A stretch of 64,000 nt of DNA from Novakomyces olei. Its lineage: Eukaryota. Position numbers and translations under genes: made by a program. Shown piece by piece: positions 6,690 through 47,720 of the stretch. Location of the stretch: contig JADEYG010000004.1 in the NCBI GenBank assembly GCA_016906335.1, positions 930,001-994,000 of the forward strand. Reading direction: 5' to 3'. The number at the start of each line of letters is the position of its first letter. The stretch's first letter is position 1. The notes below the pieces were generated by a model. The model saw only the letters and a program-made list of their open reading frames with translations, ran no database searches and was not told the DNA's origin.

Positions 6690-7978
6690 CTCGCTGCATG
6701 CGACTCGGCCGCAAAGTGACCGGTTTGAAAAGGACGGCTGCTCAAATCGTCGCTGTACTTTTACGTCTTGCGCTTGTCAGTCTTGCCAGTCGTGCCAGTC
6801 GTGCACGATTGGCCAATCAGCGGCAGTCAATTGCACCACTATTGCCACCCTTGTTACACTATGGGATAACGCGTACCCGACTCGGCAGACAGCGGGAGAA
6901 GTGGGACAGTTGAACGCTGCTCTCCACCGACCAGACTTGTCACCTTGTAAAGTACGTACACTGCAGTCTCCGCAGCTAAAGTTAGCCTTAGCGAAACTTT
7001 ACTTGCTACTTTATTATGTTACAGCGTTTGTGTGTGTGTGTGAGTGCACGCTAATCCTACACGTATATAGTCCCAAAATCGGAAGTATGTTGGACGTGTT
7101 ACAACAAATCGGTACCAAACCTGTTTTGTGGGATATACGACTGCACACTGCAAACTGCTATAGTATACGTATGTGTATATAGGTCGACGTGTCTATATGT
7201 CGATGTATCTATAAGTCGGTGCCTATACAGAAGCGGTACCATTCGACTAGTCTTAATGTCGGCGTGTGAGGAGCAGCGGTATTTGTATACATGAAACGTA
7301 AATGTATTGCCCCCAGCACCGCTGTAGCACTGGTTTAGCACTGCTAATGGGGCACTTGAAGGCAGCTCATACGTACAAGTCTTACATAGTGATTCGTGCA
7401 ACCAAACTCGCACGTACACACCATACGTTGTTTGTGACAGGGAGTGTGGCTCATTCGACGATCTGGGTTGGGTAGACACACGGACCGTGTGGTACTGCGC
7501 GCGGCACTGACTAGTCTGCTATTTTGTATTTTGTGTTTGACGAGGCTTTATAACATTCTACGGTCCGTTGGCTGGCTGCTTAAACAGTTGTGTTACCCTA
7601 TGACATGACTATGCCATACACAAACAAATTTATTTAAATTTACTAGTTAATTCTCGATGTTGAACCTGGCAGTTTAATTTGCACTTTCTCTCTCTCCTTA
7701 ATATACAGCGGGCCAGCTGCTTGTACAGACGATACTCTTAGGTTATTCGGACGTTCTTAAAAGTATACGAATTATATACAGTCAAGGTTATCGGCGAGCC
7801 ACTCTAACATTGCACCGCACTTGGCAAGTATACCGTATATACTATATACTGCCACTGTACTGCCACTGTACTGCCACTGTAGCCCAAACATACAAAAGTG
7901 GGAAAAGTAGGGTCTTATCAGACCGTTACTCCACATTACGGCCCCAAACTTGTGCAGACCCAAACTTGTGCAGACCCA

Positions 7979-15500: not shown

Positions 15501-16232
15501 ACCATCAATTTCATCTTTGAATACTTGCACTTTGCTGCCCGGTTTAGGCACTGATTCCGATTGCTGAGTGAGCGGATTCAGAGTGCTTTGCTCCATTGTC
15601 TTTGAGGACAAGATACCCCTTTGCAATTCTGCTGGAAGTTCATCATTAGCAGCTTGAGGGTTCAAGAGCAGACGCTGCTGAAACTCTTGGTATCGACGAC
15701 GTAACCGTTCCAACGGCCTTGCCTGCCTCTGTAATCCCTGTTCATAAACGTATTGAGCATGCTTTTTTCGTCCTAATCCTTCCAGCAGTCCGGCATACTG
15801 TTCGTAAAATGCAGCCAGCTCAGTGCCTACGCCGTTCTTCCACAGAAACGCAAAAATCTCCCGTGGCTCGTCACAGTACCTGGCGTACTCTGACCATACT
15901 CGCAAGTACCGTGGATCATTTGCACAGAAAGAGCTGCCTGTAAAGTGCTGGCAGCATCGTTCAAGCACACGGGCGAGGCCACTGTCGGCCGAGTTGCCCT
16001 GTGGAAAAGCCTTGTGGATCCAGTCTATGTAAGCGACCCAGACGCCTAGAGGATCATCGGACTCGTCTGCACTCGACAGTTCTTCTTCGTAAAGCGCTCG
16101 CTGAGCTGCCTGCTCCGCTCGCTGATGAGCAGGATCGTGGCGAAACGTTTTTGCCAGTTGCGAGGCAGAGCGGCCTTGTGCACAGGGCTCAATGTTTTCC
16201 TTTGAGTGCTCAATTTCGCTAAAGTCGATCAT
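12526..16232 (-). CDS. BUB1: Spindle checkpoint kinase, unsplit Mad3/Bub1 (MadBub); introns 15176-15317 and 14673-14715
   Basis: KENIEP box, TPR (DDPL..W, NDPRYL), GLEBS EELSLEEL, CD1 SPTINTKAALADVFDLFNQPL, kinase HGDLKADN, LIDFGRSID. Confidence 0.93.
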
Positions 16233-16340
16233 CGCAAAGGACTTTTGCAAAGAGCCAGCAACACTGGCGCGTTGACTTTGTTTACCTGTAAACAAGAGAT
16301 GGTGCAAAGTAAACAGTATGGAATAAAATAAGCCAATAAA

Positions 16341-16893
16341 TACAATAATTACAATAATTACAATAATTACAATAATTACAATAATTACAATAATTACAAT
16401 AATTACAATAATTACAATAATTACAATAATTAAAAATTACAATAATAAATAATTACAAATAAATAAACAATAATTACAATAATTACAAAAAATAATTACA
16501 ATAATTACAATAATTACAATAATTATAATTACAATAATTACAATAATTACAATAATTACAATAATTACAATAATTACAATAATTACAATAATTACAATAA
16601 TTACAATAATTACAATAATTACAATAATTACAATAATTACAATAATTACAATAATTACAATAATTACAATAATTACAATAATTACAATAATTACAATAAT
16701 TACAATAATTACAATAATTACAATAATTACAATAATTACAATAATTACAATAATTACAATAATTACTATAATTACAATAATTACAATAATTACAATAATT
16801 ACAATAATTACAATAATTACAATAATTACAATAATTACAATAATTACAATAATTACAATAATTACTATAATTACTATAATACAATAATTACAA
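16341..16893. repeat. (ACAATAATT)n 9-mer array, roughly 55-60 units
   Basis: Near-perfect array in the BUB1/ADE2 divergent spacer. Confidence 0.97.
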
Positions 16894-17195
16894 TAAATAA
16901 AAATAAAACAAGTAAACTAGTGCGGTTCAATCTAGCAAGCAACACTATCGGAGACGACAATTCATTTGAGTATTCCACATATATAGTATTAATATATGTA
17001 TAATATGTATAATTGTTAAAACTAGCCAAAAGTTTTATATCAGCAGACTGCTAATCAAATTTGCGACAAGTATCACTCTTATCAGGACTAAACTTTAGAC
17101 GTCGCAAATAAAGAATAATACATGGATAATTAACTAATTAATCAACCAATTAATTAAAAAAAAAAAAAAAAAAAAGACGAAGCGCCGTATCAGCC

Positions 17196-19085
17196 ATGGA
17201 CAATCGCACTCTAGGCATACTAGGCGGCGGCCAGCTCGGGCGTATGATGGTCGAGGCCGCCCACAGACTCAATGTCCAGACTGCTATATTAGACGCGCCT
17301 AATGCCCCGGCGAAGCAGATCAATGGCTCTCAGAGCCACGTGGACGGCTCGTTTCGCGATGCGCAGGCAGTGCGAAAACTAGCGGAGACTTGTTCCGTTC
17401 TGACAACGGAGATTGAGCACGTAAACACCGACATTTTGTCAGAGTTAGAAGCGACAGTTTCCGGTGTATCTGTCCAGCCGACAGCGACAACGCTGCGTCT
17501 GATTCAGGACAAGTATATACAAAAACTGCACTACCAAACCCACAATCTGGCAACGCCAGAGTTTATGGATATCGGGCCGAGCACAGAGGCAAATGTGCTG
17601 TTGGCTGGAGAGCGGCTCGGCTACCCTTTCCTACTGAAAAGCCGGACAATGGCCTATGATGGCAGAGGCAACTTTGTAGTCCGATCGGCTACGGACGCCA
17701 ATGAGGCTATCGCCTTCCTCCGCGATCGGCCACTGTACGCTGAGAAATTTGCCTCATTTACAAAAGAACTGGCAGTAATGGTTGTACGGACACTGCAGGG
17801 CGAAACATTGGCTTACCCGTGCGTGGAAACGGAGCAGGAAAACAATATCTGCCACCTTGTTTATGCTCCGGCAAGAGACGTCTCCGAGTCCTGTGCTGCT
17901 GCTGCCCGTCGCCTGGCAAAGCAGGCAGTCTCAACCCTCAGTGGAGCTGGGGTTTACGGCGTAGAGCTTTTCCTTATGCCGAACGGAGACATTCTTCTGA
18001 ACGAAATTGCTCCCCGGCCTCACAACTCTGGACACTATACGATCGAGGCCTGTCCAGTTTCCCAGTTTGAGAGCCATGTAAGAGCTGTCCTGGGACTGCC
18101 TTTGCCCGCCTGCAGTGTAGAAATGTCAACCCCACATACACACGCAATAATGGTGAATATCTTGGGCGGCAAAGAGCCTGATTCTCATATTCGTGTGGGG
18201 GAAAGAGCGCTCGTTACTCCGGGCGCCACTTTGCACTTGTATGGGAAAGGCGACGCACGCAGTGGCCGAAAGATGGGACACGTGACGATCGTCAGGGAGA
18301 CAATGACCCAGTGTGAAGCTAGTGCTCATTTCATACTGACAGGATCCTATGAACAAGGGGATTTAAGGGCTTCTAGCCCAAAACCTAAAGTTGGGATTAT
18401 TATGGGCTCCGACTCGGATCTGCCTGTAATGCGGGCAGCAGCACTGGCACTCTCTGACCTTGGTGTGCCTTTTGAATTGAGTATAGTGTCCGCTCATCGT
18501 ACTCCAGACCGAATGGTCGACTATGCCAGAACCGCCGCTCAACGTGGCCTCTCCGTTATTATTGCCGGCGCTGGTGGAGCTGCTCACCTGCCGGGGATGG
18601 TCGCAGCCATGACGCCTTTACCTGTCGTTGGTGTCCCTGTCAAGGGCAGTGTACTGGACGGAGTTGATTCACTGCACTCTATTGTGCAGATGCCGGTAAC
18701 ATTGACGCCTTTTTTTTTTTTTTTTTTTTTATTTATTTATTTATTTTTTTTTTTTTAAATATCAAAGTACCAATATGAATATTAAAAATTGAATGATGTT
18801 TCTAGTGTCGATCTATTTTTAATTTAATTTTTGCGTATTTGTTTATTTTTGGGTTTATTTTCTACACAACCGTATGCTAATATATAGCGTGGAGTTCCAG
18901 TGGCCACGGTTGCTATCAACAATGCAATGAACGCAGGACTGCTTGCCGCCAGAATTATCGGTGCTAGTGACGGGCTATTGCGGCGTCGGCTGGAAGACTA
19001 TTCACGGGCAATGGAGAAGGGCGTAATGGATAAAGTGAGCACTCTTGATTCTGTGGGCTGGGAGGCCTACGAGTACAAGAGGTAG
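17196..19085 (+). CDS. ADE2: Phosphoribosylaminoimidazole carboxylase (PurK-PurE fusion); intron 18696-18887
   Basis: [48 protein letters not shown]. Confidence 0.97.
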
Positions 19086-33391: not shown

Positions 33392-35270
33392 TTAATGTCC
33401 ATTGACCCGGTGATGGTGATGATGATTAAATATAGAAATATCATCAGCGGCCTTTTCTTCCAGATGCACTGTAGCACCTTCACTCAAAGGCTGACCGTCC
33501 ACGGACAGTCCGCTCTTCATTGCCGATAATTTAGCATTTTCGCTTCGAATGTAAGCCAAATGCTCCAAGTACTCTTCTTCCCGGCCCGTCACATAAGTGC
33601 CATTAAACAGTCCGACTTCAAAGCTTTCAATTTTTGGATTAGCCTCCACACACGATCGAACCAAGTTCTCCAGAGTCTGGTAAATCACACAGTCAGCTCC
33701 AATCTTCTCAGCTACTGAGGCCTCTTCCACACCATAAGCAACAAGATGCTTTCTGTCTGCTAAATCTATCCCATAAATATGAGGATGACGAATAGGCGGA
33801 GCGCAACTAGCAAAAAGTACTTGCTTTGCACCTGCTTCCCGAGCCATTGCCACAATTTCATGTGAAGTAGTTCCCCTGACAATTGAATCATCTACTAAAA
33901 GCACAATTTTATCCTTAAACTCTTGCGGCTGCGCATTCAGCTTTCGACGAACTGACTTCCTGCGGACTTGTTGGCCGGGCATAATGAAAGTACGGCCAAC
34001 GTACCGGTTTTTTATGAACCCTTCGCGGTACGGCAAATCAAGATCCTGTGCTAATTGAAGAGCCGACGTTCTTGCGCTATCTGGAACAGGAATAACAACA
34101 TCGATGGAGGGAACAAACTCTGCCCCAACACGATCAACGACAGTTTTGGCCAAGTAATGGCCCATATTGACACGGGACTGATAGACGGAAATGCCGTCCA
34201 AAACAGAGTCTGGCCGGGCGAAATAAACGTACTCAAAGACATCGGGAGTGTACCCGAGCTGCTGGTAAACTTGCCGAGCCAGTACCCGCGGTTCACGGGC
34301 CCCTGAACCGGGTTTCTCTATAATTATTGCCTCTCCAGGAGCCAAATCACGGAACTTCAAGTACCCATTTTGCTGGCAAACGACACTTTCGCTCGCAAAC
34401 ATGTAATCTTTGCTGCCATTTGCATTTACTCGTTCCCCAATAACGAGCGGACGTATACCGTGTGGATCACGGAAACCTAGAATGCCGAACCCTGCAAGCA
34501 TGCCCACACACGTGTAGCCGCCTTTGCAGCGGGAATAAACGCCGCTGAGGGCCTTGAAAATATCGTCAGAATTGATACGGAATTTTCCGGTTTTTTGTAG
34601 CTCTGAAGCAAAGACATTTAATAGCAGCTCAGAATCAGAGTCCGTGTTAATATGACGATGAGCGTCAATGTCAAGGTAGTGCCGTAACTCGGGTGCATTA
34701 ACCAAGTTGCCGTTCTATTATTAGCCATTATTTTAACGTTAAAAATAAGATAAACTAAATTCATTAAAAAAGAAGTCATACATGAGCAAATGCAATGCCA
34801 TAAGGTGAGTTGACGTAGAACGGCTGAGCTTCACTGTTTGCAGAACTGCCGGCCGTGGGGTATCGTACTGTTGCGTAAGCATTATAAATAGACAGCCGAT
34901 AGAACGAGTGATTTGACTATACTTTGTACAATACAGTCACGAGGCATGAAAAATCAAAGAGCAAAAGTAGAATAAAAGAGCAAAAGTAGAATAAAAGAGC
35001 AAAAGTGCAGGGTAGCACTCGACTCTGTCAGCAATAAAACGTACCATGTCCAATCCCCATACTGCCCAAAAGGCCACGGAGCTCAGAATCATCAAAGACC
35101 TCCGCTACCATACCGTTGCCCTTGCATTGGTACATACGGCCGCGAGGGCCGCATGTTGTAATTCCAGCGGCATCTTGTCCGCGGTGCTGAAGGCTATATA
35201 GCCCTTCGTATATTTCAGGGCACGCTGGCAGTGAAGCATCCGATAGCAAAACACCCAGAATCCCGCACAT
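33392..35270 (-). CDS. ADE4: Amidophosphoribosyltransferase; introns 34868-35044 and 34715-34781
   Basis: [50 protein letters not shown]. Confidence 0.97.
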
Positions 35271-35279
35271 GATAAAGAC

Positions 35280-35471
35280 CTTGTATTAGTGTGTGATGTG
35301 GGAAAGAGTAAGAGTGTCATTCACGCTCAGATTGAATCGAGTGATTTGTTGTCTGCATTGCGCTGGGCGCTTAGCAGTCTAGCATGTATCTTCTCATTAA
35401 TCATCATCGCACGAGTCAAGGCATATTGATTTGATCTCGTAAAAAATCATACAGGAATACAGAACAGATAC
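35280..35471 (-). other. Predicted 5'-UTR intron of ADE4 (donor at 35452, 35460 or 35471)
   Basis: CTAAT branch and AAG acceptor 9 nt before the ATG; GTATGA/GTATTC/GTATCT donors upstream. Confidence 0.65.
35321..35414 (-). ncRNA. Box C/D snoRNA, probable snR58 homolog (LSU Cm663-equivalent guide)
   Basis: Box C ATGATGA (35401-35407), box D CTGA (35327-35330), terminal stem UCGUGC/GCGUGA, D'-like CTAA, C'-like ATGCAGA; guide ATACATGCTAGACT complementary to the LSU GAGUCUA(A/G)C region. Confidence 0.8.
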
Positions 35472-36046
35472 TTGTGCTATTCTGCTTCAGATCGCAGCAA
35501 AAGAAAAATATCCGAACCGTGTGCAGTTTGAGTCTGGAAAATTCGAATAAATAAATAAATAACTAAAAAATTTAAATAAAATTTGAATAAAATTTGGATA
35601 AAATTTAGCAAGCTTACCACGCGAGGACTGAGCGCGGGAAAGAGTGTAGAGTGGAGAATGACCTATCCTCGCCTCAGGAGCGACGAGACCGGCGTAGAGG
35701 AATACGGTAATATATATGTACAGGCGCAAAAAATCGTAAATATCCGTGAATACTTTGCAGTACTCTGCGGATTTCGAGTGTTTTACGCTCAGATTTTAAG
35801 CGGAAACCCTCCGCACTCGACACCAAGACTCGAACTTGCGAGCTCTGTTGCCGCGAAGCCGACGATTGACACGACAATCAATGCGCCAAGGAGAAAAAAT
35901 TGAAATGTGACGAATAATTATTTTTAAAAATCTACTTTTAGGGTTTTCTATATAGCATTTGCTTGATACCCTCGTACATGTCAGGGTTTTCAATCAGGGT
36001 GTTTTTCCTGTCAAAATAGCATGGCGACTGCAGATTGAGCGACGGA

Positions 36047-37205
36047 ATGCCGACGGTCGGCATTGGCGATACAATTGCCGTTGCGGCTGTTTTCGGCGGG
36101 TGTTGCACTAATGTAGTCGCGCTGGAGAATCTGATTCAGTAAGGTGGCAATAGTGTGCGAGTAATAACGTTAGAAAAGTTCCTCAGACGGGGACAATTCT
36201 TACATGTGTGCAATTTGTGTTGACAGCCGCGCTCTCACTGCCCGCTGCGTTTAATGCAAAAAGCCATAAGGGAAATGTGCCGCTGCCGTTGCTGGTCTCG
36301 AACACGGCCCTTTTTTTCGCTTCTAATGCTCTAAACAATTGGGCCTGGGCTTTCGGAGTATCGGTCCCGCTACGTAAGATGAATCCGCTTGCCTATTATT
36401 TAAATTCTTATCAAACTTTTAATGGCTTAAATTGCGCTCAAGACTAACGGCAGACGTCATTTTCCGCAGCTCGAGCAGCCTTGTACTCATGATCGCTGCT
36501 TTTTTAATACAAAAAAAACGGTACTCCAAGGCACAGGTTTTTTCAATCGCTTTATTATGCACTGGGCTCGTGCTGGCCACTTTATATAGCACGCAAAGTG
36601 CGCCTTCACCGGCAGCAAAGCACGAGCTGGGGAAGGGTATTTTGGTGCTCTGTATCGGCCAGATTACAGGCGCGGGTATGAGCCTGCTGGGGGAGCACAT
36701 TTACAGAGTTCACCGGCCTACACCGGAACAGACTCTATTTTTTTCGGTATTTATTTATTTAATTATATATCTATTTATTTATTTATCTATTTATCTATAT
36801 GTTTTTTATTTAAATTTATTTCTTTTTTGATTTAAAACGTTTTCTAGTATTAATTCATACTATTGTGCCTATACTAACCGCTAGCATGCGCTTGGAGCGC
36901 TATTCTTTCTGCCCCTATCGCAGCGAATGGGCCGTGAATACAAGGCACTAACTTCAACCGGGAGAGATACAATTATCTGGCTCTTTGTAAACTTCGCTTC
37001 CCAATATGCCTGTGCATTTAGTGTGCAGCAAGTGGCAGCAAAAGAGTCGGCTCTCACAGTGCAAATAGTACTGACTCTGCGTAAAGCAGCGAGTCTGCTT
37101 ATAAGCGCATACATTTTTGGGAACAAGCTGCAGTGGCCTGCGTGGCTCGGGTCGGCAATGGTGTTTGCCGGTGGGCTATGCTACTCTCTACAGCCAGCCT
37201 TATAA
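36047..37205 (+). CDS. YEA4: UDP-GlcNAc transporter (SLC35B4 family); introns 36139-36173, 36374-36453, 36747-36884
   Basis: VFGGCCTNV, LNNWAWAFGVSVPLHVIFRS, VLTLRKAASLLIS..FGN. Confidence 0.9.
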
Positions 37206-46187: not shown

Positions 46188-47720
46188 GAGTCGTGAGTAC
46201 CGCTACTCGAGTGTACGTTGCAGGTATCACAAGAATTTTTTTTTAAATCAAAAGACTGGAGTTGTTTTGTCAGGCTAAAGTTACATGAATACTATCATGC
46301 CGAAAAAATACAAGCAAACAAAAGGATATCAAATCAGGAGGCCCAGGTTTTAGAACTGCGCTCGATTTCGTCAGACTCGTTCGTCAGACTCGTTCGTCAG
46401 ACTCGCGCAGTAACGCAGTAACGCAGTAAACTGGTCGTAATGAGATGCAAAACTTTTAAAATTTAAAGCAAATTAGCATAAACCGATCTGAAACCTTGAA
46501 AGGATCGATCGAGCCCGTAGGATTTTGGATAGAGAAATAAAACGGTATATAGTGTTCTTGTCCTTGGCCTCTATGGCAAGTCGCGCGCTTGACGCACGGC
46601 AAAGTGCCCGAGGAGAAAAACGCGAAACTCGCGGCCTGTACGCGCGGACACTCCGTGCAAGGCAAGTCACGCTAGAAAGATTGTGCGACGAGAGCAATTA
46701 ATGCGAAATTGAACGCGAACAACTCAGTCTCGATGGATCTGTTTCGAAACAGTAAAAACGAGAGTAAGTGCACCAATGTGCCCCGGAAATTGACGCGTTT
46801 TTCAGCTCAAATTTAAAAGTCTACCAGATAAGAGCAACACAAGAATCCGCCTTTGCCTTCAGCTGACTTTAGCGAGGCGTTATCGCCACGCAAACGCAAA
46901 CCGCCGTCTCTGTTTTGGCACACAATCTGCGAAAGCACTTTGTATACAAAATAATTACAGTGTGATACCAAGTAAGATTCTGAGCCATGAGAGTTATTGT
47001 GCTTTTTTCTATTTAGACTAGTATTCTTTGTTTATGTAATAATATTGCAGGTTTTATACATTACTATGGGCAGTCGCAGTAATGGAAAAATCACACTGCA
47101 CATTTTATACTAATACCGCACGAAAATAGTCTTCTACTTTCCGCTCCACTTGCTTATGTAATTTAGGCACAATAGAAAGAGCGGCTCGTACAAGTAACGG
47201 ACGCGTCAGTTCGATAAGGTCGAGCGAATAGTACAAGAGCCGTTTTGCCTTCGCGTCAAGGCTAATAAGACAAGTATATGCAATTATTACTACACTTGCC
47301 AGTCGACTAGTCTCAGGGAAGCCTGTGCCAAGGTATAAAACAAATTGATCTTGAACTGTAATGCGCCGACCCAGGATACATCTCAGCTGGTTTGTTTAAT
47401 TGTTTATGTTTATATTTGCGTCTTTTCTAGTAGCAATTCGATTAGTCCCATTCAAACAGCAATTAATAGTCGACTAAATAAAGGAGACAAAAGATCTACA
47501 TGGTTTGAGATTCGTCAAACACTGGAACGATAATCAAATACGTAAAAGAGACTTGACGAATAATGAAACTGAAGAGTATTTGCCTTTAAATAGCGAATCA
47601 TTTAATACGAAAAGTAAAGGATTACAGTGCTACATGACAAATATATGGCAATTATACAACGTATACAATTAGAATGTAAATGCAGGTATCACTTTCCAAC
47701 TATGCACAACCCTTTGGCGC

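Follow-up and report, generated by a model that had tools for sequence, protein, structure and literature searches.

The question raised by this locus is whether the segment that precedes ADE4 on the minus strand encodes a box C/D snoRNA and, if so, which rRNA nucleotide the RNA would address and by what route it would be made. Within the 64-kb window (the whole stretch of DNA that was analysed), direct reading of the sequence gave the following elements:

35321..35414, minus strand: candidate box C/D snoRNA of the snR58/U104 type, 94 nt
35414-35409, minus strand: 5' stem arm, UCGUGC
35408, minus strand: spacer G between the 5' stem arm and box C
35407-35401, minus strand: box C, AUGAUGA
35389-35375, minus strand: guide AUACAUGCUAGACUG, directly 5' of D'
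35376..35389, minus strand: D' guide AUACAUGCUAGACU, 14 nt, complementary to LSU AGUCUAGCAUGUAU
35374-35371, minus strand: degenerate D', CUAA, corresponding in position to the CUGA of the S. pombe snR58 probe complement and of the Rfam consensus alignments for SNORD104 and snoR64
35370-35360, minus strand: hairpin GCGC-CCA-GCGC, found in the minimum-free-energy fold
35358-35352, minus strand: degenerate C', AUGCAGA, from direct reading
35331..35351, minus strand: 21-nt spacer 5' of box D, a possible second guide
35330-35327, minus strand: box D, CUGA
35326-35321, minus strand: 3' stem arm, GCGUGA

Boxes C and D lie close to the 5' and 3' ends, respectively, and are joined by a short terminal stem (UCGUGC/GCGUGA) of six pairs, two of which are G-U; this is the arrangement characteristic of the C/D class. 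The spacer between box C and the guide AUACAUGCUAGACUG measures 11 nt. The original prediction had described boxes C, D', C' and D, closed by a 6-bp stem, on the minus strand at 35414..35321, and upon re-reading this description proved exact. The candidate does not fold more stably than its shuffled versions (z = -0.93), and its minimum-free-energy structure lacks the terminal stem. Weak fold stability is expected for the C/D class, however, and is therefore uninformative about the candidate.

An AT-rich leader that happened to contain box motifs and a short stem, and from which no RNA was made, could present the same features. Both strands of the window were scanned for RTGATGA followed by CTGA 40-140 nt further on, together with a flanking stem. 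The segment at 35414-35321 was the sole site in the whole window with a stem of at least 6 bp; one further match, with a stem of 4-5 bp, fell on the opposite strand of the ADE4 region that codes for a histidine tract. (This histidine run, HHHHHR..., at 33395-33430 on the minus strand, forms the end of ADE4 and lies outside the alignment with S. japonicus Ade4.) Shuffling the window 100 times with dinucleotides preserved gave a mean of 0.12 sites with a 6-bp stem; at least one such site was present in 12 of the 100 shuffled windows. The C/D architecture by itself is thus just mildly improbable, a circumstance that speaks for a chance look-alike, as does the missing Rfam match described below.

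Weight beyond the architecture comes from the guide, whose 14 nt address a known methylation site in the correct register. Counted upstream from CUAA, guide positions 2-15 form 14 contiguous Watson-Crick pairs with AGUCUAGCAUGUAU, as read in LSU loci from other organisms, and G 35379, the fifth nucleotide upstream of D' CUAA, is paired to the target nucleotide, which is the C of GAGUC within CCAAGGAGUCUA of the LSU. That the D'+5 rule would place the methyl group on this C, as had been proposed, was confirmed by a hand count with CUAA taken as D'. By our own arithmetic, the chance expectation of an exact 14-mer in 128 kb is ~5e-4.

As for the site itself, one published table assigns Cm at position 663 of yeast 25S rRNA to snR58 (PMC5699541), while another equates yeast snR58 (RF01199, clan CL00077) with human U104 (RF00289, Cm1327) and Arabidopsis snoR58Y (Cm674) (PMC3511168). 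These assignments in yeast, human and Arabidopsis indicate that methylation at the GAGUC site is ancient and conserved. Among fungi, the snR58 family (CD_68) is described as widespread and is reported to be absent from Sordariomycetes (PMC5824354).

A direct comparison was possible with S. pombe, whose snR58 serves as a northern loading control and for which an oligonucleotide table gives the probe GATGAAATTCAGAAGTCTAGCATC (PMC4301722). The complement of this probe reads AUGCUAGACU, then UU, then CUGA. Over the 24 nt of S. pombe RNA that were compared, the 10-nt guide core AUGCUAGACU, located two nucleotides before D', is identical in the candidate. Differences are found on either side of it: S. 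pombe has CUGA as D' where the candidate has CUAA, and the 5' part of the guide reads GAUG in S. pombe and ACAUG in the candidate, in parallel with the variable part of the LSU. The guide variant of the candidate is thus present in an snR58 that has been detected by experiment in an early-diverging ascomycete. Since a guide is constrained by its target, this identity of the core is not proof of common descent.

The animal and plant counterparts point to the same place. SNORD104/U104 (RF00289) and the plant snoR58Y share the LSU site predicted for the candidate, and the consensus guides of SNORD104 (..GUUAGACUG CUGA) and snoR64 (RF00267; ..GUCAGACUU CAGA) align with the candidate guide and D'. 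The likeness to SNORD104 and snoR64 is confined to the boxes and the guide. Judging from its consensus guide, snoR64 itself would also target the C663-equivalent site.

These comparisons make a chance look-alike very improbable. A random 14-mer would be unlikely to agree exactly with a real LSU variant while also sitting beside a D'-like box and meeting a conserved methylation site in the +5 register, and the guide core would in addition have to coincide with that of S. pombe snR58.

The check that accompanied the original prediction, a search against the Rfam snR58 model, came out negative. No match at the gathering score was obtained in the 64-kb window, and the best scores under the threshold were at background level. 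In a permissive search of 251 nt (E up to 10) we obtained eight matches, seven of them, the top three included, to C/D families. The snoR64 model aligned over its full length with 20.6 bits (gathering score 45) and SNORD104 scored 14.8 bits (gathering score 40), both alignments matching the candidate in box C, guide and D'. However, a 20-kb control, in which the candidate itself dropped out at the filters, yielded four unrelated matches of 16-22 bits, for example snoR113 with 19.7 bits within the VPS1 coding region. Because the background scores equally high, the sub-threshold matches carry no statistical weight, and we rejected those to snoR64 and SNORD104 as statistical support. By the criterion of the original prediction itself, the missing match speaks against the candidate. 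The Rfam snoRNA models concerned are short and were built from distant taxa, so that we judge this evidence weak. The identification as an snR58 homolog is partly supported, by the anatomy, the +5 target and the guide core shared with S. pombe, and finds no support in the Rfam scores.

S. cerevisiae snR58 (RF01199, CL00077) is a box C/D guide with the same predicted target nucleotide, the C of GAGUC, as the candidate; on the latter, the Rfam model of the snR58 clan scores far under its threshold. The two also differ in what they ask of the rRNA: the candidate guide, ...GCUAGACU..., implies UCUAGC, whereas Saccharomyces-type LSU loci read UCUAAC. From the guide, the LSU of this organism is predicted to contain AGUCUAGCAUGUAU, within a wider predicted 25S reading of GGAGUCUAGCAUGUAU, ...CCAAGGAGUCUAGCAUGUAU....

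We asked whether such an LSU variant exists. The 20-mer CCAAGGAGTCTAGCATGTAT was found in 26 metagenome LSU loci, all of which contain the exact 14-mer complement by construction, having been fetched with a 20-mer that includes it. The predicted variant thus occurs in nature. Its 26 carriers are diverse, and none resembles an ascomycete: when they were aligned to L005, a locus of ascomycete type, the longest alignments reached 79.8% over 945 nt. The same 20-mer gave no match in prokaryote genome contigs. A more general LSU motif retrieved at least 51 loci in prokaryote genome contigs and one in viral contigs; among the matches listed, UCUAGC was present in 3 of these 52 loci (LSU context in two), and the full 14-mer in none.

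The prokaryotic loci retrieved in this way (L002-L052, from at least 51 prokaryote-genome or MAG contigs, named isolates included) nearly all carry eukaryotic LSU rDNA, that is, contamination; L031 and L036 lack the LSU context. The viral locus, at 1985-2049 of an IMG/VR contig (L001) that encodes a picorna-like RNA polymerase, consists of ~65 nt of eukaryotic LSU rRNA at the contig end, probably an assembly or template-switch chimera.

The LSU survey bears on the possibility that the RNA is a real C/D snoRNA to which we have assigned the wrong target. The native LSU might read UCUAAC and face a mismatched or decaying guide, or CUGC, one register upstream, might be the actual D', with some other target or none. 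Indeed, among the matches listed, all nine ascomycete- or basidiomycete-like LSU loci (L005 and eight others that share at least 85% identity with it across 430 nt or more) read UCUAAC, placing an A instead of a G opposite guide C8; on such an LSU, the guide would be mismatched (C-A) at position 8. In addition, D' is degenerate, and the D-side spacer (35331..35351) has no recurrent LSU target, with eight scattered matches of at least 10 nt across 77 partial LSU loci. A single predicted guide is in line with S. cerevisiae snR58, which has a single functional guide.

Set against this, S. pombe snR58, a detectable RNA, has the same C at that guide position, requiring the G of UCUAGC in the LSU, which makes a G-variant LSU plausible in an early-diverging ascomycete. 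It is to such fungi that the named ADE4 matches bring the organism nearest: the best are S. japonicus (66%), Lipomyces, Saitoella, Pezizales and Pneumocystis. The Nop14 encoded in the window shows 34-38% over its full length to Agaricomycetes, Schizosaccharomyces and Pneumocystis. We take the organism to be a deep-branching yeast-like fungus that has no close annotated relative. Furthermore, the 14-nt match spans the variable CAUGUAU, which a decaying guide would be expected to lose, and CUAA aligns with the CUGA of S. pombe, SNORD104 and snoR64. A misassigned target is hence improbable, and we consider it quite probable that the candidate is a functional guide of the snR58 type.

To consider how the RNA might be produced, we delimited the host gene by tblastn and examined its leader:

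33392..35270, minus strand: ADE4 (amidophosphoribosyltransferase) coding region, stop included
35270-35045, 34867-34782 and 34714-33392, minus strand: ADE4 exons
35044-34868 and 34781-34715, minus strand: ADE4 introns 1 and 2
35280..35452, minus strand: proposed short intron, 173 nt, drawn from its motifs (donor GUAUGA at 35452, branch ACUAAU at 35285-35290, AAG end at 35280)
35280..35617, minus strand: alternative long intron, 338 nt, drawn from the donor motif GUAAGC at 35617
35451..35957, minus strand: ATG-free stretch, 507 nt, read as ADE4 leader and ending at the GUAUGA donor
35716: TATA-like element

Residues 1-501 of S. japonicus Ade4 were covered in three pieces with 66-84% identity, and the ATG at 35270 aligns to residue 1 (MCGILG), implying that the sequence upstream of 35270 is leader. 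In agreement with the original prediction, an ACUAAU-ACAAG acceptor ends at 35280, 40 nt past the 3' end of the RNA, and is separated from the ADE4 ATG at 35270 by nine nucleotides (GUCUUUAUC).

The donor at 35452, GUAUGA, recurs unchanged in ADE4 intron 2. The distance from the branch A to AG is 6 nt both in the proposed intron and in ADE4 intron 2, and 7 nt in the VPS1 and ADE2 introns; the layout of the acceptor (CUAAU, a short gap, AG) is common to these three of the four introns that could be defined by homology. The four have GUACGU, GUAUGA, GUAACU and GUAACA as donors and CAG or UAG as acceptors, compared to which the AAG acceptor is atypical. A permissive scan for donor, branch and acceptor motifs returned 333 matches in the window and is for this reason non-discriminating.

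The distribution of upstream ATGs was examined as well. The 507-nt stretch at 35957-35451 contains none, against ~8.1 expected from composition, while eight are found at 35450-35320, all within the proposed intron; with either donor, the spliced leader would be free of upstream ATGs. ATG gaps of at least 500 nt are 11 of 1752 in the window, several of them upstream of other minus-strand genes, which suggests that long leaders free of upstream ATGs are common in this genome. Examples are the 500-730 nt ATG-free stretches at 6699-7242, 16232-16965 and 46479-46988, upstream of genes for a Kex2-like protease, a Mad3/Bub1-like protein and a RhoGAP-LIM protein, respectively. For ADE4, the distribution of ATGs speaks for a long leader that loses the segment with the putative snoRNA by splicing, and a 5'-UTR intron around the candidate is plausible.

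A real snoRNA might nevertheless be made without an intron, either from an independent Pol II gene sitting in the ADE4 promoter or by excision from an unspliced leader, in which case each transcript would yield snoRNA or mRNA, to the exclusion of the other. The AAG acceptor and the abundance of splice-like motifs are in keeping with this. So are the reports that most S. cerevisiae snoRNAs derive from independent genes (PMC2780460) and that N. crassa has exon- and UTR-encoded snoRNAs. However, the 50 nt between the 3' end of the RNA and the ADE4 ATG leave scant room for a terminator, a promoter and a leader, and an unspliced leader would hold the eight upstream ATGs just where the preceding 507 nt have none. 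Moreover, the GUAUGA donor has the sequence of the ADE4 intron 2 donor, and the branch/acceptor spacing, usual for this genome, is found in motifs that flank the RNA. We thus regard a non-intronic origin as unlikely. If the candidate is a functional snR58-type guide, it is fairly likely to be intron-encoded. Overall, the segment at 35414-35321 is probably a genuine box C/D snoRNA of ~94 nt, the local counterpart of snR58, U104 (SNORD104) and snoR58Y, with an intronic origin being the most likely one.

An intronic origin would imply the following sequence of events. The ADE4 pre-mRNA would be expressed with the snoRNA most likely located in a leader intron of 173 or 338 nt. Snu13, Nop56, Nop58 and fibrillarin/Nop1 would bind the C/D kink-turn closed by the 6-bp terminal stem and, after splicing and debranching, exonucleases would trim the intron to the protected particle of ~94 nt. 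The 14-nt guide 5' of the degenerate D' would then pair with LSU AGUCUAGCAUGUAU, allowing fibrillarin to methylate the 2'-O of the C in GAGUC, which corresponds to C663 of S. cerevisiae 25S rRNA.

One could further imagine the snoRNA-bearing leader intron acting as a switch that couples ADE4 output to ribosome production. This idea, suggested by the pattern of upstream ATGs and the position of the RNA, is in our opinion highly doubtful. Were it true, ADE4 translation would be blocked by the eight upstream ATGs whenever the intron was retained, splicing efficiency could be altered by a snoRNP assembling on the intron, and the amount of snR58-type guide available, and with it methylation at the C663-equivalent position, would track the purine-regulated ADE4 promoter.

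A purine-synthesis gene had been called an unusual host, a statement that now appears overstated. In four species of the Candida clade, snR58 is reported to lie in a 3'-UTR intron of CPAR2_601470, a gene for a mitochondrial RNA helicase, and snR79 of the same clade in a 5' UTR (PMC5033589). The Candida-clade snR58 and the candidate would then share the setting of a UTR intron in a protein-coding host unrelated to ribosome synthesis; they differ in the host gene and in the position of the intron, which in ADE4 would be in the 5' UTR. In view of the helicase host, ADE4 is not very surprising. The snR58 of Kuraishia capsulata is described as probably intronic, and 45 of 55 C/D snoRNAs of N. crassa are reported to be intronic. 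Our literature search, judged by title and abstract, found no report of a snoRNA in ADE4.

For a deep-branching yeast-like fungus without annotation, the candidate would mean one annotated snoRNA gene more, and it yields checkable predictions on the 25S sequence of this organism and on how the 5' leader of ADE4 is built. It raises no new question on snoRNA biology. It would rather be a further example of a snR58-type guide moving freely among fungal hosts: the S. cerevisiae gene is independent and not intronic, the Candida copy resides in a helicase gene, that of Kuraishia is probably intronic, and the present one would occupy the ADE4 leader.

Some other features of the window were recorded along the way. 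A tRNA scan of the 64 kb returned no genes. A TGACTC at 35413-35418 (minus strand), the only one in 35271-36500, overlaps the 5' end of the candidate snoRNA; it resembles the core site bound by Gcn4/Bas1 in yeast ADE promoters, and its presence may be due to chance. Intron 1 of ADE4 contains, at 34952-35006, 2.9 tandem copies of a 19-nt unit with 97% matches, and AT-rich 11-nt repeats occur in the ADE4 leader at 35546-35607. The purine-pathway genes ADE2 and ADE4 lie 16 kb apart; ADE2 (17154-19085, plus strand), which encodes fused PurK/PurE, is interrupted by an intron of ~190 nt with a long T-run.
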